Below are positions 11,376-33,170 of a stretch of DNA of 35,193 nt, one piece after another. This DNA comes from Dehalococcoidia bacterium. Its GTDB lineage: Bacteria > Chloroflexota > Dehalococcoidia > Lucifugimonadales > UBA3495. The position numbers and the translations under genes are program-made. The DNA lies in contig JBGPJN010000003.1 in assembly GCA_041485445.1 (NCBI GenBank), forward strand, positions 1 through 35,193, in the 5' to 3' direction. The notes below the pieces were generated by a model. The model ran no database searches, was not told the DNA's origin, and saw only the letters and a program-made list of their open reading frames with translations. Positions within the stretch are counted from its first letter, which is position 1, and each line of letters opens with the position of its first letter.

Positions 11376-11464
11376 GAAGGACCCCCGCTACGGGCAGCCA
11401 AAGGAACCGCGCTTGTTGGGCTGCCAGGGAGCTACCTCTGTTGGGCGCAGAGTAGAACTCCGCC

Positions 11465-11640
11465 GACCCAGGCAGGTCTCCTGGCTTACGGATCAACGCC
11501 GGCCCACGCCTTCCCACCCCGATATCGTCGGGACAGTGGCATTCCAGTGGACCGGCTCCCCGCTTACAGTGGCGCGACCGCGGCAGATTGAACTGCCTTC
11601 CCTTTTGAACCTTGCGGTACCTGGGGGCACCAGTCTAAGT
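11465..11640 (-). ncRNA. Cobalamin (B12) riboswitch
   Basis: Minus-strand motifs in canonical order: GGTGCCC..AAAAGGGAA..CGCGCCACTGTAA..GCCACTG..GGGAAGG..B12 box AAGCCAGGAGACCTGCC. Confidence 0.95.
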
Positions 11641-12170: not shown

Positions 12171-12267
12171 GGGAGTGGATGGGGCCCGGTGGCCCTTGCG
12201 GACTTCAAATCCGTTATGCCTCGTGATGAGCGGGGTAGGTGGGTTCGACTCCCTCCCACTCTCGCCA
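12171..12267 (+). tRNA. selC: tRNA-Sec (anticodon TCA)
   Basis: 8-bp acceptor stem GGGAGTGG/CCACTCTC, G discriminator plus CCA, anticodon arm CGGA-CTTCAAA-TCCG (TCA at 12205-12207), long variable arm, GGTTCGACT T-loop, 97 nt; selA is nearby. Confidence 0.95.
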
Positions 12268-20589: not shown

Positions 20590-21396
20590 CTAAGCGCCCC
20601 TGGCGTCAAAGGCCGCTTTGGCCTCCTGCAGGGCCTCCTCCACGTAAGGCCAGCCCCGGTACCACCCCGCTTGGGAAAACACCTCGCAGATCTCCCGCTG
20701 GGTCATGCCCAGGTCCAGCGCATAGCCAACGTGCCGCCGCAACTGCTTCATATGTCCGCGGCACATCAGCGCCACCAGGATGCACACCGTGCGCTCCTTG
20801 GGGCTTAGGTCGGCCCGCGCCCAGACCTCGCCGAAGTTGTAGGCCTCCACCAGGTCCGCCACGTCGGGCAGGAGCTGCTGCGTTAAGGAGCCTTCCATAT
20901 CCGAGTGGGCCTGCTCTCCCCAGTTGTGCCGCCGCAGCCGGGCGCCGCGCTCTAGCTTCTCCTCCACCGAGGCCAGCCACTGGGCCTGCAGTGGCAGCTT
21001 GTCCTCCTGTTGCCACATCGCCTGCTCGTTAATCACCTTCTGGGCCTGGGTGAGGGCAAACACCGTGGCCGGAATCCCGGCGTAGAACATGAGCTGCAGG
21101 AAGATGCCCTTGATCTTCTGGGGGCTCATGCCCAGGGTGAGCCCAACCCGGATCTGGTGGTGCAGGCCGAAGTCCCAGCCGTTGCAGCACTGGGCGGCGA
21201 TGGTGGCCATGCTTCGCAGACTTATATCCAGCCCGGGCACTTGCCAGATGCCGCCCCACATCACCTCGTCCTGCAGCTTGACATAGTCCAGGCTGATGCC
21301 GGGCAGGGCGCCGGTCAACCGCCCGGCGGGGACGTACTGGTCGATGAAGGCGTGCAGGTTAACCGCATGCCGGTACAGCTCATCGGCGGTGGTCAT
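20590..21396 (-). CDS. Two-domain carboxymuconolactone decarboxylase (CMD/AhpD-like) family protein
   Basis: Two CMD units: WGGIW..PGLD..RS....FYAGIP and FGEVWARADLSPKER...QLRRH...WYRGWP. Confidence 0.85.
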   Translation of the reverse strand: MTTADELYRHAVNLHAFIDQYVPAGRLTGALPGISLDYVKLQDEVMWGGIWQVPGLDISLRSMATIAAQCCNGWDFGLHHQIRVGLTLGMSPQKIKGIFLQLMFYAGIPATVFALTQAQKVINEQAMWQQEDKLPLQAQWLASVEEKLERGARLRRHNWGEQAHSDMEGSLTQQLLPDVADLVEAYNFGEVWARADLSPKERTVCILVALMCRGHMKQLRRHVGYALDLGMTQREICEVFSQAGWYRGWPYVEEALQEAKAAFDARGA

Positions 21397-21511
21397 CGTG
21401 GATGCTCCTGTTCACAGTTTGACTGGCGGATTTCAAGAGACGAACGTGACTCAACCAGAGTCTGTCCAATAAGCGCTTCTTCTCCCCCTTTCCAAGATGC
21501 GTGATGCTATA

Positions 21512-21637
21512 GACCCTTGCATAACTTCTTAAACTGTGTCGGACGAAATCCCCCCAACCCCCCTTTGCGAAAGGGGGGCAAGTGGCCGTTTCCACCGCAA
21601 ACGCCTTCCAACCGGTTTAGATACTTATGCAAGGGTC
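21512..21637. mobile_element. MITE-like element with GACCCTTGCATAA inverted ends enclosing a CCCCC/AAAGGGGG repeat
   Basis: Perfect 13-bp TIR extending imperfectly to 23 bp; same end family as 15766-15884. Confidence 0.75.
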
Positions 21638-21667
21638 GTTAGTTGTCCGACATCCCAATCTTACGGA

Positions 21668-21768
21668 TGTCATTCTGAGCCGCAGCGAAGAATCTAAAGT
21701 AGTGGGCACAGCACCATCGCAGGTTCTTTAGATTCTTCGCCTTCGCTGCGCTTCGGCTCAGAATGACA
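21668..21768. repeat. TGTCATTCTGAGC...GCTCAGAATGACA palindromic repeat
   Basis: Complementary arms with inner GCGAAGAATCT/AGATTCTTCGC. Confidence 0.85.
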
Positions 21769-21921
21769 GTTTTATAGATATGAAATGCTCCTTGGACTTC
21801 GAGGGTCTGACTAGTATCAGGCATCTTACCACGGGGGAGCTAGGGGGGCCTTCGGCTGAAGGACGACCCACCCTGACCTCCTTGGTAACGAGGGGGATTC
21901 CCACCCACCATCTTGGGCGAC

Positions 21922-22743
21922 CTAGAGTCCCCTCTCCTGGAAAACCTTCTGGGCCTGCTCCAGGGCGTCCTCCACGCAGGGCCATCCCCGGTACCAGCCC
22001 GCCTGGGAGAACACCTGGCAGATCTCCTCCTTGGTCAGCCCTGCATTCAGGGCATACTCCACGTGGCGCCGTAGCTGCTTCATGTGCCCACGGCACATGA
22101 GGGCGGACAGGATGCAGACCATCCGTTCCTTTGGGCTGAGGTCATCCCGAGCCCAGACCTCGCCAAAGTGGTAGCCGTCCACCAACTCGGCGATGTGCGG
22201 CGCCAGCCGGCGGGCCACGGAGGTCTCCTCCGCCTGGTTTGCATCCACTCCCCAGTGCCGGATGCGCAGCTCCCTCCCGCGCTGGAGCCCCTCTGCCATG
22301 GTGGAGCGCCAACCCGCATCTATCTCAGGGGGCACGTCCTGGGACTTCCACTGGGCACGCTCGTTGATCACCTCCTGGGCCACGCGCAGGCCGAACACCG
22401 TGGCAGGTATTCCGGCGTAGAACAGGAGCTGGATGAAGATGCCCTTGATCTGCCGCGGGCTGAGACCCACCGTGAGGCCGGTGCGCACCTGGTGCTCCAC
22501 GCCGAAGTCGTAGCCATTGACGCACTGGGCGGAGATGGTGGCGAAGCTGCGCAGCTTCAGGTCCAGCCCCGGCTCCAGCCACACGCCGCCCCACATGAGC
22601 TCATGCTGGACGCGGACGAAGTCCGCCAGCACCGGCGTGGGCCGAGCGTAAGGCAGGTGCTGGTCGAAGAACTTCCGGAGCTTGGCCGACTTCTGTTGCA
22701 GCTCTTCTACTGTAGTCACTTGGGTAGGCTTGGGGGTGGTCAT
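21922..22743 (-). CDS. Two-domain CMD/AhpD-like family protein
   Basis: Paralog of the flanking genes with the same motifs; 4-nt overlap with the upstream gene. Confidence 0.85.
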   Translation of the reverse strand: MTTPKPTQVTTVEELQQKSAKLRKFFDQHLPYARPTPVLADFVRVQHELMWGGVWLEPGLDLKLRSFATISAQCVNGYDFGVEHQVRTGLTVGLSPRQIKGIFIQLLFYAGIPATVFGLRVAQEVINERAQWKSQDVPPEIDAGWRSTMAEGLQRGRELRIRHWGVDANQAEETSVARRLAPHIAELVDGYHFGEVWARDDLSPKERMVCILSALMCRGHMKQLRRHVEYALNAGLTKEEICQVFSQAGWYRGWPCVEDALEQAQKVFQERGL

Positions 22744-23525
22744 GGGGTTTGGTCCCTCCGCTGGGCGAAGACTGCGGCCGCCTGCTCCAGTCCGTCCTCC
22801 ACATGGGGCCAGCCGCGATACCAGCCGGCTTGGGAGATGACCTCACAGACCTCCCGCTGGTCAAAGCCCATGTTCAATGCGTAGCCGATGTACTGACGCA
22901 ACTGGCTCCAGTGGCCCCGGGCCATCAGCGCGGCCAGGACGCACACCATCCGTTCCTTGAGTTCCAGGTCAGCGCGCTGCCACACCTCGCCGAAGTTGTA
23001 CCCGTCCACGATGTCCGAGGCCTCCGGGACCATCTGCTGGGCCAGGGAGGTCGCAACCTCCTGGTCGGCCTGGTCTCCCCAGAGGCGCCGCCGGATGGCG
23101 CTGCCGCGTTCCAGCTTGGCCGCCACGGTGTCCAGCCAGGTTTCCTCGGCGGGCACGTCGGCGTCCTTCCACTCCCATCGCTCGTTGACTACCTTCTGGG
23201 CCTGGAGCAGCCCAAAGACGGTGGCGGGTATGCCGGCATAAAACAGCAACTGGATGAAGATGCCCTTGATCTTCTGGGGACTCATGCCCAGGTCCAGCCC
23301 CATCCTGATTTGATGCTGCAGGCCGAAGTCCCAACCGTTGACGCACTGGGCCGAGATGGTGGCCAGGCAGCGGAGCTTCAGGTCCAGGCCGGGTGACTGC
23401 CAAATGCCGCCCCAGGTCAGCGGCACCTGGATGCGGGCGTAGTCACCGCAGACCTCCGTCAGCTGCGCGTGCTCCGGCAGAAACCGGCCCAGGGCCGCCG
23501 CGCGGTCTTCCATCTGGTCAGACAT
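22740..23525 (-). CDS. Two-domain CMD/AhpD-like family protein
   Basis: WGGIWQSPGLDLKLR...FYAGIPA; FGEVWQRADLELKER...WYRGWP. Confidence 0.85.
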   Translation of the reverse strand: MSDQMEDRAAALGRFLPEHAQLTEVCGDYARIQVPLTWGGIWQSPGLDLKLRCLATISAQCVNGWDFGLQHQIRMGLDLGMSPQKIKGIFIQLLFYAGIPATVFGLLQAQKVVNERWEWKDADVPAEETWLDTVAAKLERGSAIRRRLWGDQADQEVATSLAQQMVPEASDIVDGYNFGEVWQRADLELKERMVCVLAALMARGHWSQLRQYIGYALNMGFDQREVCEVISQAGWYRGWPHVEDGLEQAAAVFAQRRDQTP

Positions 23526-23740: not shown

Positions 23741-23884
23741 GTAGTGGGTCAGATAGGTTCCCGTCATTCCGGCGCAGGCCGGAATCCATCGGTGCATCTC
23801 AACCACGCTCGTACCTGGACACCGGCCTTCGCCGGTGTGACGGATAGAGTCCCCGTTCTCTGCCATAGCAAACTGACCCGGCAC
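23741..23884. mobile_element. MITE-like element (GGGTCAG/CTGACCC ends) enclosing a GTCATTCCGGC...GCCGGTGTGAC palindrome
   Basis: Left end GTAGTGGGTCAGATAG; right end (reverse complement) GTGCCGGGTCAGTTTG; internal palindrome about 23761-23843. Confidence 0.55.
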
Positions 23885-23913
23885 CCAAGCTGCGGGCATT
23901 GCTACGAAAATGG

Positions 23914-23990
23914 CCCCGTCTCCCTCTGGGAGAGGGTTGGGGTGAGGGTGATGCCCCTCACCCTAATCCTCTCACATAAGGGACGAGGAA
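23914..23990. repeat. CTCCCTCTGGGAGAGGGTTGGGGTGAGGG / CCCTCACCCTAATCCTCTC palindromic repeat pair
   Basis: Inverted arms directly visible. Confidence 0.75.
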
Positions 23991-24113: not shown

Positions 24114-25664
24114 TCAGGGGACGCCCAGGTTGTCCAGCACCTCTCGCAACTTCCGCGCCAGGTCGGAAGGCAAGAATGGCTTCTGGATGAACGGAACTTT
24201 GCCGGCCGGCATGCCCTGGAAAGTCACCGGCTCGGCGGTATAACCGGAAGTGAAGAGGATCTTGGCGCCGGGACGCAGGGCGCCGAACTGCTTGGCCAAC
24301 TCAATGCCGTTCATGCGCGGCATCATCACGTCAGTCAACAGGAGGTGAATGGTCTGGTCCTGGTGAGACCGGACCACAATGATGGCTTCCTCACCGTTAC
24401 CGGCTTGAAGCACCGTGTACCCCTGGGCCTGCAAGGTGGCGGCCACCATGCCCCGCACCGCCGGCTCGTCCTCCGCCAGGAGCACCGTCTCCGTGCCCCT
24501 GGGCATGGCCAAGTTTGCCGGGGGCGGTGTCCGGTGCTTGAGGGGTTCTTTGGTTTGGGGCAGGCACACTGTGAAGGTGGTGCCCTGGCCCACCGTACTC
24601 TGGACCTCCATGTAACCTCCGCTTTGCCGGATAATGTCCTGGCAGGTGGACAGGCCCAGGCCAGTCCCTTTTCCAGGCTCCTTTGTGGTGAAGAGCCGCT
24701 CAAAAATGTGGGCTTTGACCTCGCCGGACATCCCCGTTCCGGTATCCATCACTGAGAGTGACACATAGCTGGCGGGGGCCGCGCCGGCGGCATCAGGTTT
24801 GGGGGCGACATTGGCGGTGCGGATAGTAATCGTTCCACCCTGTGGCATGGCATCCCGTGCGTTGACCACCAGGTTCACCAGAACCTGCTGGCATTGGCCG
24901 GTGTTGGCCTTGGTGGTTTTCAGGTCTGGTGACAGCAGGGAGACAAGCTCGATCTCGTCCCCTACCAGCCGCTTCAGCATTCTGGCCATGTCAGTAACCA
25001 GCTCGTTCAGGTCCATGACGCTGAGGTCCAGGGTCTGACGCCGGGTGAAAGCCAGAAGCTGGCGGGTAAGGCTGGTGGCCCTTTCCACCGCCTGCCGGAT
25101 CTCGTCCAGGTTGCCGGCCGCCTGATGGCCGGTGGCCAAGGCCAAAGTCCCCAGCTCGGCGTTGCCGGAGATGGCGGTCAGCAGGTTGTTGAAGTCATGT
25201 ACCACGCCCGAAGCCACCCGCCCGATGACCTCCAGCTTCTGAGATTGGAGCGCCTGCTCCTGCTGCAGTTGTTTATTCTCCCGGCGCTGTTCGGCCTCCC
25301 GAAGCTCCCGGACGATGATGGGGATCAGCCTTGCCAGCTTGCCCTTGGTGACGTAGTCGTGGGCGCCGGCCCGCATGGCCGCCACGGCATCCTCATCGGA
25401 CACCACGCCGGACACGATGATGAAGGGCAGGTCCTTGCCTGTTTCCTGGACCAGCTTCAAGGCGGCGAGGGCATTGAAGCCGGGCAACCGGTAGTCGGAC
25501 ACCACCAGGTCCCAGGGGTGCTTCGCCAGGGCGGCCCGGACGGCGTCAGGAGTGTCCACGCGCCGGGACTCGGGCGCATATCCGCCGCGCTTCAGCTCCT
25601 GGAGCAGCAGCAGGGCGTCGTCTTCCGAGTCTTCCACCATCAGGACGCGCAGGGGTGTCGGCAT
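24114..25664 (-). CDS. Cytoplasmic hybrid histidine kinase (REC-HisKA-HATPase-REC, CckA-like kinase core)
   Basis: VEDSEDD...SDYRLP; H-box GVVHDFNNLL; NLVVNARDAM, DTGTGM, GKGTGLGL; C-terminal AEDEP...TDVMMP...KPF. Confidence 0.93.
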   Translation of the reverse strand: MPTPLRVLMVEDSEDDALLLLQELKRGGYAPESRRVDTPDAVRAALAKHPWDLVVSDYRLPGFNALAALKLVQETGKDLPFIIVSGVVSDEDAVAAMRAGAHDYVTKGKLARLIPIIVRELREAEQRRENKQLQQEQALQSQKLEVIGRVASGVVHDFNNLLTAISGNAELGTLALATGHQAAGNLDEIRQAVERATSLTRQLLAFTRRQTLDLSVMDLNELVTDMARMLKRLVGDEIELVSLLSPDLKTTKANTGQCQQVLVNLVVNARDAMPQGGTITIRTANVAPKPDAAGAAPASYVSLSVMDTGTGMSGEVKAHIFERLFTTKEPGKGTGLGLSTCQDIIRQSGGYMEVQSTVGQGTTFTVCLPQTKEPLKHRTPPPANLAMPRGTETVLLAEDEPAVRGMVAATLQAQGYTVLQAGNGEEAIIVVRSHQDQTIHLLLTDVMMPRMNGIELAKQFGALRPGAKILFTSGYTAEPVTFQGMPAGKVPFIQKPFLPSDLARKLREVLDNLGVP

Positions 25665-25685
25665 GTCGGGTAGCGTCCCGCTCCC

Positions 25686-26141
25686 TTACGCAGCCCGTGG
25701 CATGGGGTGATTGAGCACCAGCCAGTACAGGCCCACCTGCCGCACCGCCTCCACGAACTGGACGAAGTCCACCGGCTTGCGGATGTAGCTGTTCACGTGG
25801 TACTTGTAGCTATCCGCGATGTCTTTATCCTCGTTGGAGGAGGTGAGGGCCACCACCGGAATAGATTGAGTCCGGCGGTCCTCACGCAGGCGCCGCAGCA
25901 CTTCCAGGCCGCTCACCTTGGGGAGCTTCAGGTCCAGGAAGATGACCGTGGGCTGGACCTCGGGGTCCCGGTCCGCATGGGCGCCGGTGCAGAAAAGGTA
26001 GTCCAGCGCGTCGGCCCCGTCCCGTGTCACCACCAATTGATTGGCGATATTGTTCTTCTTCAGGGCGCGGATGGCCAGGGCCTCGTCGTCCGGGTTGTCT
26101 TCCACCAGCAGAATCACCTTGTCCTCTATAATAGTTGCCAT
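25686..26141 (-). CDS. Single-domain response regulator (Rcp1-like)
   Basis: LLVEDNPDD, LDLKLPKVSGLEVL, LTSS, NSYIRKPVDF, GLYWL. Confidence 0.93.
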   Translation of the reverse strand: MATIIEDKVILLVEDNPDDEALAIRALKKNNIANQLVVTRDGADALDYLFCTGAHADRDPEVQPTVIFLDLKLPKVSGLEVLRRLREDRRTQSIPVVALTSSNEDKDIADSYKYHVNSYIRKPVDFVQFVEAVRQVGLYWLVLNHPMPRAA

Positions 26142-26157
26142 TATTTCCTCTCCGCCG

Positions 26158-28038
26158 CTAAACTAGGATGGTAAAGTAGAAGGTAGCTCCCTTACCCACT
26201 GCCCCCTCCGCCCAGATCCGGCCGCCGTGACGGTGGATGACGCGCTGCACCGTGGCCAGCCCAATGCCCGAGCCCTCAAACTCATCGGTCTTGTGAAGCC
26301 GCTGGAACGCCCCGAAGAGCTTGTCGGCGTAGGCCATGTCAAACCCGGCGCCGTTATCCCGTATGAAAAAGGCCGGCTTCCCGTCGCTTTGGGTCACCCC
26401 GAACTCGATGCGGGCCTGAGGCTGCTTGGCGGTAAACTTCCAGGAGTTGCCTAGCAGGTTCTCCAGGGCGATGCGCAGCAGCTTGCCATCACCCTTCACC
26501 ATTGCTCCAGGGGCGATGGCGAACTCCGTCTGACGCTCCGGCTGCCGCTGTTTCAGGTCCGCGGCGACAGCCTCCACCAGCCCGCTCAGGTCCACGTCCT
26601 GCACCTCCATCTTGGTCCGGGTGGTGCGGGAGAGGCCCAGCAGGTCGTCAATGAGCTGGCCCATGCGCTGGGTGGCAGCGCGGACCCGCCTGAGGTACTC
26701 CTGTCCGGTGGAATCCAGCTTTTCCCCGTAGTCTTCCAACAGCGCCTGGCTGAAGCCGTCAATACTGCGCAGCGGGGTGCGCAGGTCGTGGGATACGGAG
26801 TAGCTGAAGGCCTCCAACTCCGAGTTGGTGGCAGTTAGCTCCGCGGTGCGCTCCGCCACGCGGTGTTCCAGGCTGTCAGCCAGTTGTTTGATATCTTGCG
26901 CCGCCCGCTCTGCCTCCTCCACCTGATGGTTCAGGCTGGCATAGGACGCCCGAAGTTGGGTGCTCATGCGGTTAAACTCCTCGCCGAGCTCCTCCAATTC
27001 GTCGCCGGTACGAACACGGATTGTCTGGTCCAGCATCCCCGCCCCAATGCGGGCGGCGCCGGACTGCAGGGCCAGGATTGGAGCCACCATTTTACGGGCC
27101 ATAACCACGCTAGCCAGAAATGACAGCCCGAGGCCGATGATCACGAGGAGAATGGCTCGCAGGATAGAGTCGTATAGGGGCGCAAAGGCCTCATTCAGAG
27201 GCTGTTCCAAGAAAACGGTCCAGCCCAGCGGAGCGATGGGTTGATAAGTAGTCAGAACCCGGTTCTTCTGGAGGTTTCGCTCGATAGATACTTGTGGTCT
27301 CCCCAGTGTAGCTGGTTCAGCCGATGCCGCCAGGGCCGCTTGGACCTGTGGCAAGGAGGACAGGTCGGTCCTCCGCAGAACCAGGCTGATGTCAGGATGG
27401 GCGATGAGCTGGCCGGAAGTGTCCACCACGTACGCATACCCGCCCTCCCCAATCTTGATCTGGGAGACCAACTCCGAGATGAATTTCAGGTTCACTTCGG
27501 CCACGGTGACCCCCGCGAGTTGTCCGGCGCCTACCATCGCTATAGTCATATACGGATCGGCGGACTCCTTGAGGAAATACACTGGGCTGAAGTAGGTTTT
27601 CCCGGTCTTGGCCAAGAAAAACTTGGGATCTCGTGACAAGTCTGACTGGCTCCCTATCACGTCCACGGCCAGGCGGGAGACTCTGAGCTGCTCCATGCCC
27701 AACGGATCCAATTGGCTTATTGCAGTGATTGCCGGGACCTGGCGAAGAAGCCTCAAATAGTCTAAGCGTCGCTGGTTCACAGCTTCTGAACTGGTGTTCC
27801 ACGGGTAATGGGTGGTCCAAGCGATCTGGTGCTCGGTCTCCTTAACAAACTGCTCTATTTGAGAGGCGGCGGCGATAGCCTTCTCCTGCTGGAGGAGGAC
27901 CTCCGCCGCCTTGTTTTGCTGGTAGACAAAATAGATCTCGATGAAACCGCTCGTCAGTGACGCCACGCCGATCAGGGTCACGAAAATGACCATGTACTTT
28001 CGGAAGAGGTTGCCCCGAGACTTACTCAGAGATCCCAT
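26158..28038 (-). CDS. Membrane sensor histidine kinase (dCache-HAMP-HisKA-HATPase)
   Basis: Two TM segments; YFSPVYF and GYAYVVDTSGQLIAHPD (Cache); HAMP GDELEELGEEFNRM; H-box FSYSVSHDLRTPLR; DNGAGFDM; GIGLA. Start at ATG 28038 (TTG 28059 is an alternative). Confidence 0.93.
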   Translation of the reverse strand: MGSLSKSRGNLFRKYMVIFVTLIGVASLTSGFIEIYFVYQQNKAAEVLLQQEKAIAAASQIEQFVKETEHQIAWTTHYPWNTSSEAVNQRRLDYLRLLRQVPAITAISQLDPLGMEQLRVSRLAVDVIGSQSDLSRDPKFFLAKTGKTYFSPVYFLKESADPYMTIAMVGAGQLAGVTVAEVNLKFISELVSQIKIGEGGYAYVVDTSGQLIAHPDISLVLRRTDLSSLPQVQAALAASAEPATLGRPQVSIERNLQKNRVLTTYQPIAPLGWTVFLEQPLNEAFAPLYDSILRAILLVIIGLGLSFLASVVMARKMVAPILALQSGAARIGAGMLDQTIRVRTGDELEELGEEFNRMSTQLRASYASLNHQVEEAERAAQDIKQLADSLEHRVAERTAELTATNSELEAFSYSVSHDLRTPLRSIDGFSQALLEDYGEKLDSTGQEYLRRVRAATQRMGQLIDDLLGLSRTTRTKMEVQDVDLSGLVEAVAADLKQRQPERQTEFAIAPGAMVKGDGKLLRIALENLLGNSWKFTAKQPQARIEFGVTQSDGKPAFFIRDNGAGFDMAYADKLFGAFQRLHKTDEFEGSGIGLATVQRVIHRHGGRIWAEGAVGKGATFYFTILV

Positions 28039-28152
28039 GGTGTCTATGCCCCCGGACAAGCAGTCATTCGTTCATCTCGTCGTCATTGCAGTCAGGCGCC
28101 GTCCCACCTGCCTGAGCCTGTCTTGTTTGACCGTACGCCGGGCCGCGGACCC

Positions 28153-29172
28153 TCATTCTTCAATCAACTTGTCTGCCAGAGCAAGGACCTCTCTGGGCAG
28201 CTCGATTCCCAAGGCCTTCGCCGTTTTAAGGTTAACGATGAATTCAAACTTCAGGGGGATTTGAATGGGGATTTCGCCAGGCTTTATGCCTCGCAATACT
28301 TGGTCCAGAGTTCCTGAGCACTGTCTTCCAAGCAGCCGCCATGACGGGCCGTACGAGGCGAGCATACCCCTTTTCGCGAAACCTTCTTCATGAGCCATGG
28401 TGGGAAGCTTGATTCTATTTGCCGCCTCAATGACCGCATCAGCCGCTCCAGTCACTTTTGCCTCGCCGAGATGGAAGAACGCATCATATTCGCCCTGAAC
28501 AAGGCCATTCATCACTGTCACAACCTCGTCTTTGGACCCAACATGTTTCTCCGCGAGGGTAACGCCTAGTGTGGTTGCAGCTTCACGGAGGGTGACGATG
28601 GCATCTTGCGAGAATTTATTTGCCGGATCGTAAAGAACGAGTACATTCTGAAGGTTGGGCAGCATCGTCCTGAGAATTTCCAGCCGCTTTGGGCCGGTCT
28701 GCCCGACGAAGTTACTGCAACCGGTAAGATTCGCTCCCGACGCGGTTAGGCTTTTTGCCAAGCCAGCGCCGACCGGATCACTTACAATATTGAAAACAAT
28801 CGGGATATCCTTTATGACCTGTGCCACCTCTAGTGTCACTGGCGTGGATACAGAGTAAATGGCATCGACCTGTTGGCTCAAAAACCCTTCAGCGGCAGCC
28901 TTTGCCTGCTCATTAGAACCCCCGGCATCGATGATGGTGTACTCAATGTTCTTTCCTTCCTCATAGCCAAGAGCGTTCATTCCCTGCTGCACGCCTATGA
29001 TAACTTCGGTTTGCCCACCGCCAAAGGAAACCACGCCGACTCGATACGGCTTTTGAGGTTGCGCTTTAATAGTTTGTCCCAGTGAACCTTGACACCCAAC
29101 CAGGGTGGCCAACATGATGACCACCATTGGGACCATAGTTAGAAAGGTTTTCTTCGTCCATGACCGGTTCAT
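28153..29172 (-). CDS. ABC-type substrate-binding lipoprotein (ABC_sub_bind / aromatic-amino-acid-binding-like), orphan
   Basis: Lipobox LVGC, LGYEEGKNI, VSDPVGAGL, ANLTG, LASYGP, IVNLKTAKALGI; SD GGAGGA. Confidence 0.9.
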   Translation of the reverse strand: MNRSWTKKTFLTMVPMVVIMLATLVGCQGSLGQTIKAQPQKPYRVGVVSFGGGQTEVIIGVQQGMNALGYEEGKNIEYTIIDAGGSNEQAKAAAEGFLSQQVDAIYSVSTPVTLEVAQVIKDIPIVFNIVSDPVGAGLAKSLTASGANLTGCSNFVGQTGPKRLEILRTMLPNLQNVLVLYDPANKFSQDAIVTLREAATTLGVTLAEKHVGSKDEVVTVMNGLVQGEYDAFFHLGEAKVTGAADAVIEAANRIKLPTMAHEEGFAKRGMLASYGPSWRLLGRQCSGTLDQVLRGIKPGEIPIQIPLKFEFIVNLKTAKALGIELPREVLALADKLIEE

Positions 29173-29208
29173 CGAATCCTCCTCCGTTTGCAGCTTTCCT
29201 ACACAGTG

Positions 29209-32169
29209 TCAGGATTTGTAAATTGGAATAGGCACAGAAGGTGAGTTGCTTGCCGCTACCGGTTGGCGCTGCCGTAGAGCCACCCGAAGGACAAACTCGG
29301 CTGAGTCCCGCACCTTGAGCCGCACTACTATTGCAGCGATGACTGAAACACTCAGAAAGAAGTATCCAACCATTGAGAAGCCGCCCGTAGCGAGTATCAG
29401 TCCTCCAATTGATCCACCCACCAAAGCACCGAACTGGCTGCTAAAGCTTGACATCGCCGTAGCTGTGGCCCGAGACTTGCCAGCCAGCTCCAATAGTAGG
29501 GTCGGCGTAGCAGCGTTTGAGACTCTCAAGAGCGCCACGGCTCCAAAGGCCAGCGCCACCGTCACCCATGGAGACATGTTGGTAGTAAATACCAGTTCAG
29601 CCAGAAGTCCACCCCACAGGGGAAAAGCGGTGAAGAAGGCCAAGCGATGGGGATGGTCAGCTACTTTTCCACTGATAAATCCGGCCGCTACTATGCCACT
29701 TCCGGCCAAGGACAGTGGCAGAATTGTTTCTCTTACGCTCATACCGTGGGTCTGAATGAGATTGGCCGCCAGGTAGGTGAACACGCCGTAAACAGCCATT
29801 TCCTGGAGGGCGTTGGCTGCCAACGCATACCACGCCACCCTGTTTGATCCCACTTCCCTGTAGTGAGTCAGGAAGGATGGAGTGTGGTCCGCCTCGCGCT
29901 GGCTCCTCGGGCACCACACCCAGAACAGCGCCAATAGTATCAGCAGCAGAATGCCAATGACGAAAAAGGGGAGTCGCCAGCCACCTAAGTCGAGCAGGAG
30001 CGCCACCACACCAATGCCGAAGCCTGCGCCGAGCCCTTGTGCACTGACCAGCCTGCCAATAGCCTTCCCGCGTTTTTCAACTGGAAATATGTCGGCTACA
30101 GTAGCTAAACAATTGGCGTAAACTATGCCGAGTCCCGCTCCCGTGACTAGACGGAATACCAGGAGCGAACCGTAGCTCCAGGCTAGGGCTGCGCCCAGCA
30201 CGCCCACCGCCATCAGCGCCAGACCGCTGAGAAGCATAGGACGTCTTCCGTAGGCGTCTGACAAGGGCCCCGACGCTAGCACTGTGAAAATCCGGGTTAT
30301 GGCCATGACCGTTACCAGTTGCCCAGCGACGGCCAGCGAAGTGTCTAAATCTCTAGCCAGGTCCACAAGTAGCGGCCCCAGCATCACAGTCACTGTGAAA
30401 GTTGAGAAGGTCGCTGCGGCGAGCAATAAAAGAACAAGATTAGCGGGTGGCTGACGTTTAGCCTTACTCAACTCCTGCGCCGCAACCGGCGTCCTCGGCA
30501 CGCCGCTGTCCATGCCTAGGGTAAAGTAGAAGGTAGCTCCCTTACCCACTGCCCCCTCCGCCCAGATCCGTCCGCCGTGACGGTGGATGACGCGCTGCAC
30601 CGTAGCCAGCCCAATGCCCGCGCCCTCAAACTCATCGGTTTTGTGAAGCCGCTGGAACGCCCCGAAGAGCTTGTCGGCGTAGGCCATGTCAAATCCAGCG
30701 CCGTTATCGCGTATGAAAAAGGCCGGCTTCCCGTCGCTTTGGGTCACCCCGAACTCGATGCGGGCCTGGGGCTGCTTGGCGGTAAACTTCCAGGAGTTGC
30801 CCAGCAGGTTCTCCAGGGCGATGCGCAGCAGCTTGCCATCACCCTTCACCATTGCTCCAGGGGCGATGGCGAACTCCGTCTGGCGCTCCGGCTGGCGCTG
30901 TTTCAGGTCCGCGGCGACAGCCTCCACCAGCGCGCTCAGGTCCACTTCATGCACCTCCATCTTGGCCCGGGTGGTGCGGGAGAGGCCCACCAGGTCGTCA
31001 ATGAGCTGGCCCATGCGCTGGGTGGCAGCGCGGACCCGCTTGAGGTAGTCATGCCCGGTGACATCCAGCTTTTCTCCGTAGTCCTCCAACAGCGCCTGGC
31101 TGAAGCCATCAATGCTGCGCAGCGGGGCGCGCAGGTCGTGGGACACCGAATAGCAGAAAGACTCTAGCTCTGAGTTAGTGTCCTCCGGGCCCACCGCGCG
31201 GCTTGTCAACTCCTCCTCCGCACGCTTACGTTGGCCTAGCTCACGCTGCAGCTTTTCATACATTCCGGCAAGTTGTTTGCTAGTGATTGCTCCGAAGAGC
31301 AGGAGCAGGAATAGGGAGGCCCCAGAAAAGCCCCAAACTATGTCGGTCAGAAGTTTCCGGTTGGATTGAAAGTTGGCCTGGGCTGCTGCGGTCTCTTGCG
31401 CTCCATCGGCAATGGCCTGGCGCATGAACCCTTCCAGTTCGTGGGATACCTTGTGCTCCTCGTCCAGGTGCAGCTTCAGGGCGGCGTCAATTTCCCCGGC
31501 TTCGTACAGGGCCAGCACACGGGCGCTGGCTTGGGAGAAGCGGAGATCAGCCTCCTTTACCTTGGCGAAAAGGTCCGCTTTGTCGGGCTCAAGTCTCTCC
31601 AACTCCTCTAGGTCAACTGAGAACCCTGCCTTGGCAGTAACGATCTTGGCATTGTTGGCATCGTCGCCCGTGAGGAGTGCCATGGCCCGGAAGTGGCTCT
31701 GGGAGGTGATGGCGTAAATCATCTGCTGGACTCGGCTTTCGTACTCTTGGCGGACCCCCAGCCGTTCCACGCTCACGCTCATGCGCTGGATGACGGCCAT
31801 GCTGAGGCCCGCCATACCCAGGAGGAGTAAGGCCCCCACCATAAAGCCGGACAGCAGCTTGAAGTGGACCCCCAGCTTCGCCTTGGCCGCCAGGTCTACC
31901 AGGGGGCGCAGCGGGTGGGCCCAGAGGGGGAGCAACCCGCGGGAGGTTTTCACCGGCGCGTCGGCATTCCGCGGTGCCTTGGGCGGTGGGGTGCCTTCCT
32001 TCACCGCTTTAGGCGCCGCCTTAGGTGGCGCCGCCTTAGGTGGCGCCGTCTTGGGGCGTTTCGGTGGCCGCTCCGGGCCAGCCGCGTGGTGGGCTTCCAC
32101 CACCCAGCCGCGCCGGACCGACGTATCCGGAGCTTCCTGCTGGGGTGGTATTTGTGGAGTTTTGGCCAC
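29209..32169 (-). CDS. Sensor histidine kinase fused to a C-terminal MFS transporter
   Basis: Single open frame: Pro/Lys-rich N-tail, TM1, helical extracytoplasmic domain, TM2, H-box FCYSVSHDLRAPLR, HATPase, then about 400 aa hydrophobic MFS region with motif A GPLSDAYGRR. Start placed at GTG 32169 after GAGGA (ORF track gives 32184). Confidence 0.85.
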   Translation of the reverse strand: MAKTPQIPPQQEAPDTSVRRGWVVEAHHAAGPERPPKRPKTAPPKAAPPKAAPKAVKEGTPPPKAPRNADAPVKTSRGLLPLWAHPLRPLVDLAAKAKLGVHFKLLSGFMVGALLLLGMAGLSMAVIQRMSVSVERLGVRQEYESRVQQMIYAITSQSHFRAMALLTGDDANNAKIVTAKAGFSVDLEELERLEPDKADLFAKVKEADLRFSQASARVLALYEAGEIDAALKLHLDEEHKVSHELEGFMRQAIADGAQETAAAQANFQSNRKLLTDIVWGFSGASLFLLLLFGAITSKQLAGMYEKLQRELGQRKRAEEELTSRAVGPEDTNSELESFCYSVSHDLRAPLRSIDGFSQALLEDYGEKLDVTGHDYLKRVRAATQRMGQLIDDLVGLSRTTRAKMEVHEVDLSALVEAVAADLKQRQPERQTEFAIAPGAMVKGDGKLLRIALENLLGNSWKFTAKQPQARIEFGVTQSDGKPAFFIRDNGAGFDMAYADKLFGAFQRLHKTDEFEGAGIGLATVQRVIHRHGGRIWAEGAVGKGATFYFTLGMDSGVPRTPVAAQELSKAKRQPPANLVLLLLAAATFSTFTVTVMLGPLLVDLARDLDTSLAVAGQLVTVMAITRIFTVLASGPLSDAYGRRPMLLSGLALMAVGVLGAALAWSYGSLLVFRLVTGAGLGIVYANCLATVADIFPVEKRGKAIGRLVSAQGLGAGFGIGVVALLLDLGGWRLPFFVIGILLLILLALFWVWCPRSQREADHTPSFLTHYREVGSNRVAWYALAANALQEMAVYGVFTYLAANLIQTHGMSVRETILPLSLAGSGIVAAGFISGKVADHPHRLAFFTAFPLWGGLLAELVFTTNMSPWVTVALAFGAVALLRVSNAATPTLLLELAGKSRATATAMSSFSSQFGALVGGSIGGLILATGGFSMVGYFFLSVSVIAAIVVRLKVRDSAEFVLRVALRQRQPVAASNSPSVPIPIYKS
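30520..31170. repeat. Near-identical duplicate of the kinase-core DNA at 26170-26820
   Basis: Aligns at offset 4350 with only scattered substitutions; both copies begin GGTAAAGTAGAAGGTAGCTCCCTTACCCACTGCCCCCTCCGCCCAGATCCG. Confidence 0.95.
32012..32056. repeat. 15-bp tandem repeat encoding PPKAA
   Basis: GGCGCCGCCTTAGGT twice plus one degenerate copy. Confidence 0.8.
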
Positions 32170-32272
32170 GGTGGCAGTCCTCACATTGAACGGGTCAAAA
32201 TTGACGCCCGGGATTCATCGTTGCTGGAAGGGCATGCTATCTGCGCCGCCAATGCCGGCGACGCCCTGGGCG

Positions 32273-32803
32273 TTAGTCCCGGTCGTCCTTCGGCTTCCAA
32301 ATGCTGGCGTAAACGGCCAGAGAAGCGGCCACCCAAACCACGTTCTTGATCACGTATTCCCCAATCTTGGTCAACAGGAACGGGTTGCCGTGGCGGAAAG
32401 CCACCTCCGGCAGGACCGGCAGCACCAGGAAGGTGCCGCCCATGTGGATGAAGAATGCGAATAAGCAAAGGTGCAGAAAGAGTCCCCGACCCACCAAGAA
32501 CCCCGACCCTATGATCATCTCCCCAACCCCCATCCAGGGGATCAGGTCCTCGGGCGCGGCAGGGAACCAATACAGCGTGTCGGTTACCAACTTGAAGTTG
32601 GAGTCGGGACCGATAACCTTTTCGGCGCCGAACCAGACGTAGACTAAGCCCAGGGATAAGCGGATGGCCGGGACCGCCAGGACCGCCAACAACCGGGCCA
32701 GCCGCCGGTCCTCACGAGTGACGGCCGCGACCAGCCCGCCAGGTTGGCTAATCCCGGAGAGCCTGGAGCCCGCCGGGATGCGATGAAACCGTGATGCTGC
32801 CAC
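32273..32803 (-). CDS. DoxX/DUF417-like membrane protein
   Basis: IRLSLGLVYVWFGAEK, GVGEMIIG, HMGGTFL, GEYVIKN. Confidence 0.75.
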   Translation of the reverse strand: MAASRFHRIPAGSRLSGISQPGGLVAAVTREDRRLARLLAVLAVPAIRLSLGLVYVWFGAEKVIGPDSNFKLVTDTLYWFPAAPEDLIPWMGVGEMIIGSGFLVGRGLFLHLCLFAFFIHMGGTFLVLPVLPEVAFRHGNPFLLTKIGEYVIKNVVWVAASLAVYASIWKPKDDRD

Positions 32804-33065
32804 GCGTTCCTCTTTCGTCTCGCGCTTCCGTGGTCCACTCGTTGTCTCTGCGCGATGGTGCCCGGTGCCGGATTGGGTTTCTCGGTGCTATAACCCCAAC
32901 CAGAAGTAAACGGGCGTGTGACTCTTAAGTTACCATCACGGCGAACTTAATCCCAAAGGGCAGGCACCCCTTTGCCAAGGTTGGCCAGGTCGCCCATTGA
33001 AAGAGCGTCAGGGATTAGTGGGGACAATGGGGGTGATGTAGTCTGGAACCGGTTGGGTTGCGGCA

Positions 33066-33099
33066 ACGAAAGGCCCACCGGCTTGGAGCCGGAGGGCCT
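33066..33099 (-). terminator. Intrinsic terminator after the UGSC gene
   Basis: AGGCCCTCCGGCT-CCA-AGCCGGTGGGCCT-TTCGT on the minus strand. Confidence 0.6.
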
Positions 33100-33170
33100 G
33101 GCAAGGGATGCGGGTTAGACGCCGGCGCGGTCCGCGGAGGGGTCCGCGCCAAAGGCGCGCCGGCCGGGCC

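Follow-up and report, generated by a model that had tools for sequence, protein, structure and literature searches.

A sensor histidine kinase that runs in frame into a major facilitator superfamily transporter in a Dehalococcoidia bacterium, a probable young stop-loss fusion

The window analyzed here is a stretch of 35,193 nucleotides from a Dehalococcoidia bacterium (assembly GCA_041485445.1, contig JBGPJN010000003.1, positions 1 to 35,193). It carries on the minus strand a gene in which a membrane sensor histidine kinase (HK1) is joined to a transporter of the major facilitator superfamily (MFS). The operon order on this strand is a 176-aa open reading frame (ORF), the fusion, a PF04392 substrate-binding protein (SBP), a second kinase (HK2), a REC-only protein, and a hybrid kinase. 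The fused frame is uninterrupted in the ORF listing at 29209..32184, with 991 codons from the GTG at 32184 and the stop codon at 29209-29211. Because the database copy of the protein (P0003) has 986 amino acid residues and the motif GAGGA lies 8 nt upstream of the GTG at 32169, a start at this latter codon fits, which gives a gene of 986 codons plus stop at 29209..32169. Residue numbers throughout count from the GTG at 32184. The original prediction, made from the sequence alone, had described a single uninterrupted kinase-MFS ORF at 29209..32169. This ORF is real and contains no in-frame stop, but its orientation had to be corrected, as it lies on the minus strand.

The predicted domain order, namely transmembrane helix 1 (TM1), sensor, TM2, HisKA, HATPase_c, linker, and MFS, was recovered by Pfam and a hydropathy scan. 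MFS_1, Sugar_tr, HisKA, and HATPase_c were the only Pfam matches of the whole protein, and the MFS_1, HisKA, and HATPase_c matches were all above their gathering scores. TM1 and TM2 together with a complete 12-TM MFS give the ~14 TM helices that had been expected. The topology is viable, as had been argued, since the cytoplasmic catalytic and ATP-binding (CA) domain precedes an MFS with a cytoplasmic N-terminus. The predicted product is a 14-TM polypeptide, which would be translated as one chain. No promoter-like or terminator-like sites were found on the minus strand inside the fused ORF. The full-length protein was modeled with AlphaFold without an alignment (mean predicted local distance difference test score, pLDDT, 44.1; predicted TM-score, pTM, 0.28), and this model was used only as a weak hint of secondary structure and not for contacts. 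A combined full-length kinase and MFS alignment for AlphaFold was dropped, because the kinases were wrongly placed by MAFFT, at 12-24% identity to the query. The N-terminal residues 1-100 (31885..32184) are a Pro/Ala/Lys-rich region of low complexity without a family match. The poor single-sequence model gave residues 1-92 a low pLDDT and assigned them no secondary structure. The true start being uncertain, part of these first ~100 residues may be untranslated.

In the kinase half, the Kyte-Doolittle hydropathy scan placed TM1 at residues 114-132 (31789..31845) and TM2 at residues 282-300 (31285..31341). The putative extracytoplasmic sensor region lies between them (residues 133-281, 31342..31788). 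The label 'helical' is tentative for this region, as it is taken only from the composition and the poor model. In Pfam at E values up to 10, the region had no significant match (4HB_MCP_1, E=1; NuDC, E=0.12), and relatives of it were found in 0 of 40 related genomes. The transmitter module that follows, with the DHp domain (dimerization and histidine phosphotransfer) and the CA domain, comprises residues 336-555 (TNSELE...FYFT; 30520..31179) and was delimited by repeat comparison and Pfam. HisKA (PF00512) matched residues 342-403 with an E value of 5.7e-12 (45.9 bits, cut-off 26.9), and HATPase_c (PF02518) matched residues 448-557 with an E value of 8.3e-20 (71.7 bits, cut-off 26.4). The motifs SHDLRAPL, GNSWKF, DNGAGF, FGAFQR, and GAGIGL can all be read in the fused kinase; we take the first to be the H-box and the others to be the N, G1, F, and G2 boxes, respectively. 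The similarity to the kinase modules of HK853 and a bacteriophytochrome extends to residues 554-557. By its domain content, HK1 is predicted to be a HisKA-type (class I) sensor histidine kinase.

The MFS core occupies 29209..30462. As had been predicted, the translation contains the motif GPLSDAYGRR, between TM2 and TM3 of the transporter, and a complete C-terminal MFS. MFS_1 (PF07690) matched residues 588-880 in two stretches (E 2.5e-48, 165.2 bits, cut-off 33.4). The hydropathy scan resolved 11 hydrophobic blocks in this part, and the AlphaFold model built on a 70-sequence alignment showed a full helix set (mean pLDDT 90.4, pTM 0.87). In a Foldseek search against the PDB, this model superposed on NorA, VMAT1/2, MdfA, SotB, and YajR with TM-scores by target of 0.69-0.89; for NorA, VMAT, MdfA, and YajR, the probability was 1.00 over 378-398 aligned columns. 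NorA was also the nearest solved sequence match (E 4e-22, profile positions 13-394 of 403). The confident model and the near-full-length NorA match together identify it as a complete 12-TM DHA1-like MFS. None of the best 25 of the 63 curated NCBIfam subfamily models matched (Cmx/CmrA, AraJ, Bcr/CflA, and others) reached its cut-off, the best scoring 92.2 bits against 400. The three closest MFS homologues have 431-442 residues and are 68-71% identical in the alignment (70-73% by BLASTP). The MFS probably acts as a proton-coupled exporter. The known systems nearest to it are the DHA1 exporters NorA, MdfA, SotB, and YajR and the NCBIfam Cmx/CmrA and AraJ models. Unlike the DHA1 exporters, however, it sits C-terminal to a kinase.

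The two halves are joined by residues 556-573 (LGMDSGVPRTPVAAQELS; 30466..30519). The linker named in the original prediction (LGMDSGVPRTPVAAQELSKAKRQPP) was read directly in the translation. The codons at the junction are TTC TAC TTT ACC CTA GGC ATG GAC, with the in-frame ATG at 30513-30511. Pfam revealed no structured coupling domain (STAC, HAMP, PAS, or coiled-coil) between residues 557 and 588. The linker, which forms the first 20 residues of the AlphaFold model of the MFS part, had pLDDT values of 55-57. This low-confidence stretch is probably a flexible or disordered tether of ~20 residues.

Of the 120 listed MFS homologues, 109 have a recognizable TM1 motif within their first 120 residues. 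In 65 of these 109, the protein starts exactly 27 residues before this motif. This is the position of Lys574 (AAG, 30463..30465), which lies 16 residues after the linker Met. The usual start is thus not at the linker Met, the position named in the original prediction. A Shine-Dalgarno-like AGGAG (30472..30476) lies 6 nt before codon 574, and this spacing resembles that of the SBP gene, the response regulator (RR) gene, and two carboxymuconolactone decarboxylase (CMD) genes of the window. No such site was found within 20 nt of the ATG at 30513, and an in-frame TTG abuts AGGAG without a spacer. We infer that residues 556-573 correspond to former kinase-MFS intergenic DNA (54 nt) that is now read in frame, with AGGAG as a relic ribosome-binding site, and that the own start codon of the MFS has probably changed from ATG to AAG. 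With this start lost, the transporter would depend on the kinase ORF for its translation.

An artefact had to be excluded, as the source is a metagenome-assembled genome (MAG) of 342 contigs, a 660-nt repeat of the kinase module lies 3.6 kb away, and the junction adjoins a CCC run (30519-30521). One base fewer in this run would give TAG, two bases (GC), and then ATG, and would thus separate the genes. The junction (30513-30520) was therefore checked in Logan contigs of four runs (X1-X4) over 29100-32300, in which no indels were listed. In X2, X4, and X3, the junction is bridged by contigs without a single gap. X2 record 12 spans 30442-31390 and joins the MFS, the whole kinase module, and the HK1-specific sensor in one 949-nt contig; X4 record 28 spans 30432-30670; and X3 record 20 spans 30399-30549 with 0 differences, although it extends just 30 letters beyond 30520 into the kinase. 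The contigs of X1 break at the junction, with no listed piece across 30489-30519, a gap to which no weight is given, and one X1 piece is the 3' end of the paralogue. Both kinase copies share the same 51 kinase-coding nucleotides ahead of the junction, and attachment to either of them would leave the MFS fused in frame. The fusion in the DNA is thus not an assembly or homopolymer error, and the stop or misassembly at ~30515 that had been envisaged was not seen.

The fused architecture appears to be confined to the window. A search with the junction region (residues 440-760) found kinase and MFS domains together only in the window's own protein (1 of 120 listed). This search was swamped by kinases, as the listed matches other than the window's own two proteins cover 34-43% of the query, and it says little on architecture. 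Among 20 listed proteins of 545-1735 residues with words in common with the MFS part, a good score was reached only by the protein of the window itself; the next best long protein was an EmrB/QacA-type MFS (E 6.6e-8). The full protein was also compared exhaustively by phmmer with 1.84 billion representatives. The best 150 matches were 149 kinases and one stand-alone MFS, the window's own protein not being among these 150 listed representatives. All but one of the 149 kinases (148) have a kinase stretch that ends at most 24 residues from the C-terminus, and the remaining one, P0264, is a double kinase that also has PAS domains (7 of 20 two-stretch matches scanned). Conversely, none of the 120 listed MFS homologues has a kinase Pfam domain; all have 292-505 residues and MFS-type domains only. 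The alternative raised in the original prediction, that all homologues encode the MFS separately, was thus largely borne out.

Genomic loci gave the same picture. A search with a wider alignment found 58 genome loci with at most 58% identity. The four closest MFS sequences led to metagenome contigs with at most 55% identity and to none in genome contigs. Fifteen loci whose MFS relatives are 40-58% identical (the best 10 of the 58 genome loci and the first 5 of 80 metagenome loci) had no kinase-like ORF in their retrieved flanks. In 300 genomes of the same phylum, two of them unpublished (G078 and G312), no match spanned the CA domain and the MFS at E <= 1e-25 when 7 candidates were scored per genome. 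Within relatives of the two modules, the same order was not seen in two or more lineages, and the sequences so far do not point to a conserved fusion family. The public records of loci L024, L025, and L118 show an MFS relative split over two or three frames, due to frameshifts or sequence errors.

The original prediction had noted duplicated kinase DNA, and the duplication was confirmed. The DHp+CA module of HK1 (copy A, 30520..31179) and residues 411-630 of HK2 (copy B, 26170-26829) are identical at 623 of 660 nt (94.4%). By comparison, the orthologue in G002, a genome of the same genus, is ~76% identical over a wider kinase-RR stretch. HK2 ends in FYFTILV-stop and has a dCache-HAMP sensor, and the G002 kinase ends in FYFTLE-stop; only HK1 continues into another gene. 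The two window copies differ at 34 of 220 codons, 21 of them synonymous and 13 non-synonymous, which indicates at the sequence level that the kinase is not decayed. When the changes were polarized with G002 as the outgroup, 5 could not be assigned. HK1 had acquired 10 synonymous and as many non-synonymous changes, all but one of the latter (9) in DHp, compared to 10 synonymous and 2 non-synonymous in HK2. Evolution after the duplication was thus asymmetric between the DHp of HK1 (30976-31179) and that of HK2 (26626-26829). In the CA domain of HK1, 3 synonymous changes and 1 non-synonymous change were derived, and this mostly synonymous change indicates that the catalytic half is under constraint. 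The faster change of the HK1 DHp could reflect new partner specificity or relaxed constraint.

The genes around the fusion are all on the minus strand. The 176-aa ORF (32273-32803) just upstream of it is hydrophobic and has no Pfam match; at the matching place, G002 has no ORF of at least 100 residues. Downstream lie the PF04392 substrate-binding protein (28153..29172), which is TrpX-like but below the NCBIfam cut-off, and HK2 (26158..28059) with the architecture dCache_1-HAMP-HisKA-HATPase_c. These are followed by the REC-only response regulator (25686..26141) and the hybrid kinase (24114..25664) with two Response_reg matches, HisKA, and HATPase_c. In G002, the synteny is UGSC, kinase, RR, and hybrid kinase, which the kinase-RR synteny of HK2 matches. 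The G002 locus is without the MFS, the SBP, or either sensor of the window, its kinase carries a third, unrelated sensor, and the window holds ~5.3 kb more. In G001, the other genome of the genus, the first ORF of at least 110 residues after the UGSC match is a REC-only protein, and no kinase was found among the three ORFs scanned there. These two same-genus genomes yielded no match to the MFS at E <= 1e-20 and none to the HK1 sensor at E <= 0.001. Within the window, the G+C content dips to its minimum in the MFS/SBP stretch (0.53-0.57 compared to ~0.65), where G+C at third codon positions is 0.60 (MFS) and 0.55 (SBP), compared to 0.80-0.84 for the kinase modules and the RR. These low values suggest that the stretch is imported DNA.

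The G002 kinase ends with TTT ACT CTG GAG TAG. The end of HK1 (ACC CTA G...) matches that of G002 (ACT CTG G...) until four bases before the G002 stop and then diverges. The stop may have been lost by a small deletion or by a larger recombination. A Campbell-type integration, with the kinase copies as direct repeats flanking an MFS-SBP-dCache insert, was considered but is not distinguishable from a small deletion, because the paralogous modules end at the gene end anyway.

No two of the three genomes of the genus have the same content in the slot beside the UGSC gene (24114-32803 in the window, L108 on G002:C5, L167 on G001:C20). In G001, the REC-only protein comes first; G002 has the kinase, the RR, and the hybrid kinase; and the window has two kinases and, additionally, the MFS and the binding protein. 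Across the slot, three unrelated sensors are found on one kinase module. At ~4800-4830 of L108 (G002:C5), the kinase orthologue has a 7-nt gap relative to both window copies, which breaks its frame; the gene is either a pseudogene or affected by an assembly error. Between the CMD genes and the hybrid kinase, positions 23741-23990 of the window match dozens of places in the two same-genus genomes with 71-96% identity. This segment holds G+C-rich palindromes and looks like a member of a dispersed REP/MITE-like repeat family. Next to it, on the minus strand (20590-23525), lie three tandem CMD-family paralogues, each with two CMD stretches, which are conserved in G001 and G002. Elsewhere in the window, a selenocysteine tRNA (12171-12267, plus strand; ARAGORN; RF01852, 67 bits) adjoins a cobalamin riboswitch (11454-11639, minus strand; RF00174, 109 bits). 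A 90-nt tRNA-Pro called by ARAGORN at 33046-33135 (plus strand) had no Rfam tRNA match at the gathering score and is probably a false call.

To our knowledge, transporter-kinase fusions are rare, and those studied all have the transporter first and a structured coupler. Ks-Amt5 is a fusion of an Amt transporter with a kinase, and in UhpC/UhpB an MFS-type transporter works with a histidine kinase as separate polypeptides. The original prediction was aware of no characterized kinase with a C-terminal MFS; likewise, no such paper was found in the open-access literature searched. CbrA, with a secondary transporter and a histidine kinase in one polypeptide, is described as a rare 'transceptor' (PMC13022988), and the CbrAB system is assigned to Pseudomonadaceae (PMC8871633). 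Sd-Amt1 has been described as an Amt-HAMP-GGDEF transporter-signaling fusion (PMC11152129), and DctA/DcuB with DcuS and BceAB with BceS as co-sensing transporter-kinase pairs (PMC11109136).

The fusion in the window resembles proteins of the CbrA/CrbS type (SLC5/SSS-STAC-PAS-HisKA-HATPase_c) in having a transporter and a kinase in one chain. CbrA, however, has an SLC5-family transporter at its N-terminus, which connects to the kinase input via a STAC four-helix bundle. In the fused protein, the MFS follows the CA domain over a probably disordered linker of ~20 residues, the kinase has its own sensor, and the protein is a singleton. Pfam found neither an N-terminal SLC5/SSS domain nor STAC in it. 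Sd-Amt1 and Ks-Amt5 have an N-terminal transporter and a helical HAMP-like link to the output, and the window fusion has neither. UhpC/UhpB and the DcuS and BceS pairs are separate polypeptides that interact, whereas the window fusion provides a covalent tether only, with no interaction shown.

We consider it likely that the fusion is real but young and lineage-restricted, and that it arose by loss of a stop codon and joins two still-intact modules without an allosteric link. At a two-component locus undergoing rearrangement in the genus, a membrane sensor kinase, its DHp+CA module being a recent copy of the module of the neighboring kinase, would have lost its stop codon. Reading would now proceed across the 54 nt that once separated the two genes and enter a DHA1-like MFS gene, in which the original ATG start would have become AAG. 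Both modules would work much as they did when separate, the kinase signaling to the downstream REC proteins and the MFS exporting. Since a flexible tether without a coupling element provides for co-expression and co-localization and not for allostery, the fusion would add only obligatory co-expression, a 1:1 stoichiometry, and co-localization.

Several points weigh against this explanation. Translation as a single chain is read from the DNA alone. The two-gene ancestor is presumed, as an unfused ancestor of this kinase-MFS pair was not observed and no close relative with both genes was found, the contigs of the three closest MFS homologues (P0144-P0146) lying outside the loci compared. The architecture searches reach only relatives of these two modules, and an analogous fusion of distant modules would be missed. 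All four runs, X1-X4, come from sediment metagenomes dated 2024-2025; they may represent a single campaign or population, and the window may itself derive from one of them, so that persistence in populations independent of each other is not established. Where the bridging contigs differ from the window (6 letters in X2, 4 in X4), they always carry the allele of the paralogue, which may reflect gene conversion or mixing of assembler paths. The concentration of 9 of the 10 non-synonymous HK1 changes in DHp could mean relaxed constraint and not retained function, and the arrangement AGGAG-N6-AAG could be a coincidence in G+C-rich DNA. Finally, the loss of the start codon with an intact ORF can equally be read as a sign of a selected fused form, which favors a working transceptor.

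Such a transceptor, in which the MFS and the kinase are functionally coupled by flux sensing or kinase gating and the fusion is the selected unit, is nonetheless unlikely. It is compatible with the topology and with the 986-codon frame, which is intact as a whole and present in other runs. The MFS apparently has no start of its own, and it would be made only via the kinase ORF or from a start without a Shine-Dalgarno-like site. The DHp of HK1 has changed faster than that of HK2 (10 compared to 2 non-synonymous changes at equal synonymous change), as if adapting to a new role, and transporter-kinase fusions work as units elsewhere, as described for CbrA (PMC13022988). However, with no second example, no conservation backs selection on the join. 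The join follows the CA domain and not the DHp input helix, and its ~20 low-confidence residues resemble intergenic DNA, with no STAC, HAMP, PAS, or coiled-coil element between the modules. Moreover, the kinase already has its own extracytoplasmic sensor, and the MFS relatives are not found beside kinases (0 of 15 loci). The flux sensor or kinase-gated exporter of the original prediction is thus unsupported, given the lack of conservation and of a coupling element and the intergenic-like linker. In one specific form of this idea, slightly more doubtful still, alternating access of the MFS would act via the short tether on CA and change how frequently CA meets the DHp histidine, reporting export flux to the downstream REC/hybrid-kinase relay. 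If this were true, the protein would be a newly arising transceptor with the order of CbrA reversed, and the loss of the MFS start within an intact 986-codon frame and the fast change of the HK1 DHp would be its first adaptive steps.

It is likewise improbable that the fusion came about by chance, is tolerated or slightly harmful, and is now being lost, with the losses of the stop and start codons as neutral or degenerative events and one or both modules no longer contributing to fitness. The absence of any frameshift or stop in 986 codons, the intact kinase boxes and MFS fold, the mostly synonymous change of the CA domain, and the recurrence of the same junction in three further runs argue against decay. 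This explanation would account for a singleton in a variable locus, for the missing start codon of the MFS, and for the excess of non-synonymous change in the HK1 DHp. Because neither same-genus genome was found to contain the MFS or the HK1 sensor, both also appear to be dispensable for the genus.

There is little to suggest that one ORF yields two proteins, with the MFS still made separately by internal initiation at the ATG at 30513 or elsewhere and the fused chain as a minor product. This in-frame ATG heads the linker, a stand-alone product would have a normal MFS N-terminal tail, and AGGAG at 30472-30476 could still recruit ribosomes. However, the ATG has no Shine-Dalgarno-like site within 20 nt, the codon 6 nt after AGGAG is AAG, the TTG abuts AGGAG, and no promoter-like site lies inside the ORF. 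As there is no stop codon, ribosomes on the kinase must continue into the MFS. An artefact, either a chimeric assembly across the 660-nt repeat or an indel in the CCC run, could be suspected from the 342-contig MAG, the 94% identity of the repeat, the single base that would separate the genes, and the X1 break, but it is very improbable in view of the gap-free contigs from X2, X4, and X3, the 51 shared kinase-coding nucleotides, the single contig of X2 that reaches the HK1-specific sensor, and the HK2 kinase-RR synteny shared with G002.

The fusion in this Dehalococcoidia bacterium reverses the order of the known transporter-kinase fusions and appears to be very young. It also shows why a singleton architecture from a MAG should be interpreted functionally only with caution. 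Should the tether couple the modules, it would offer a natural blueprint for connecting an exporter with a phosphorelay. The likely steps remain legible in the sequence, from the duplication of the kinase module and the loss of its stop codon to the translation of the intergenic DNA, with a ribosome-binding site left as a relic, and the loss of the transporter's start codon. The locus may thus serve as a worked example of how multidomain membrane signaling proteins arise.

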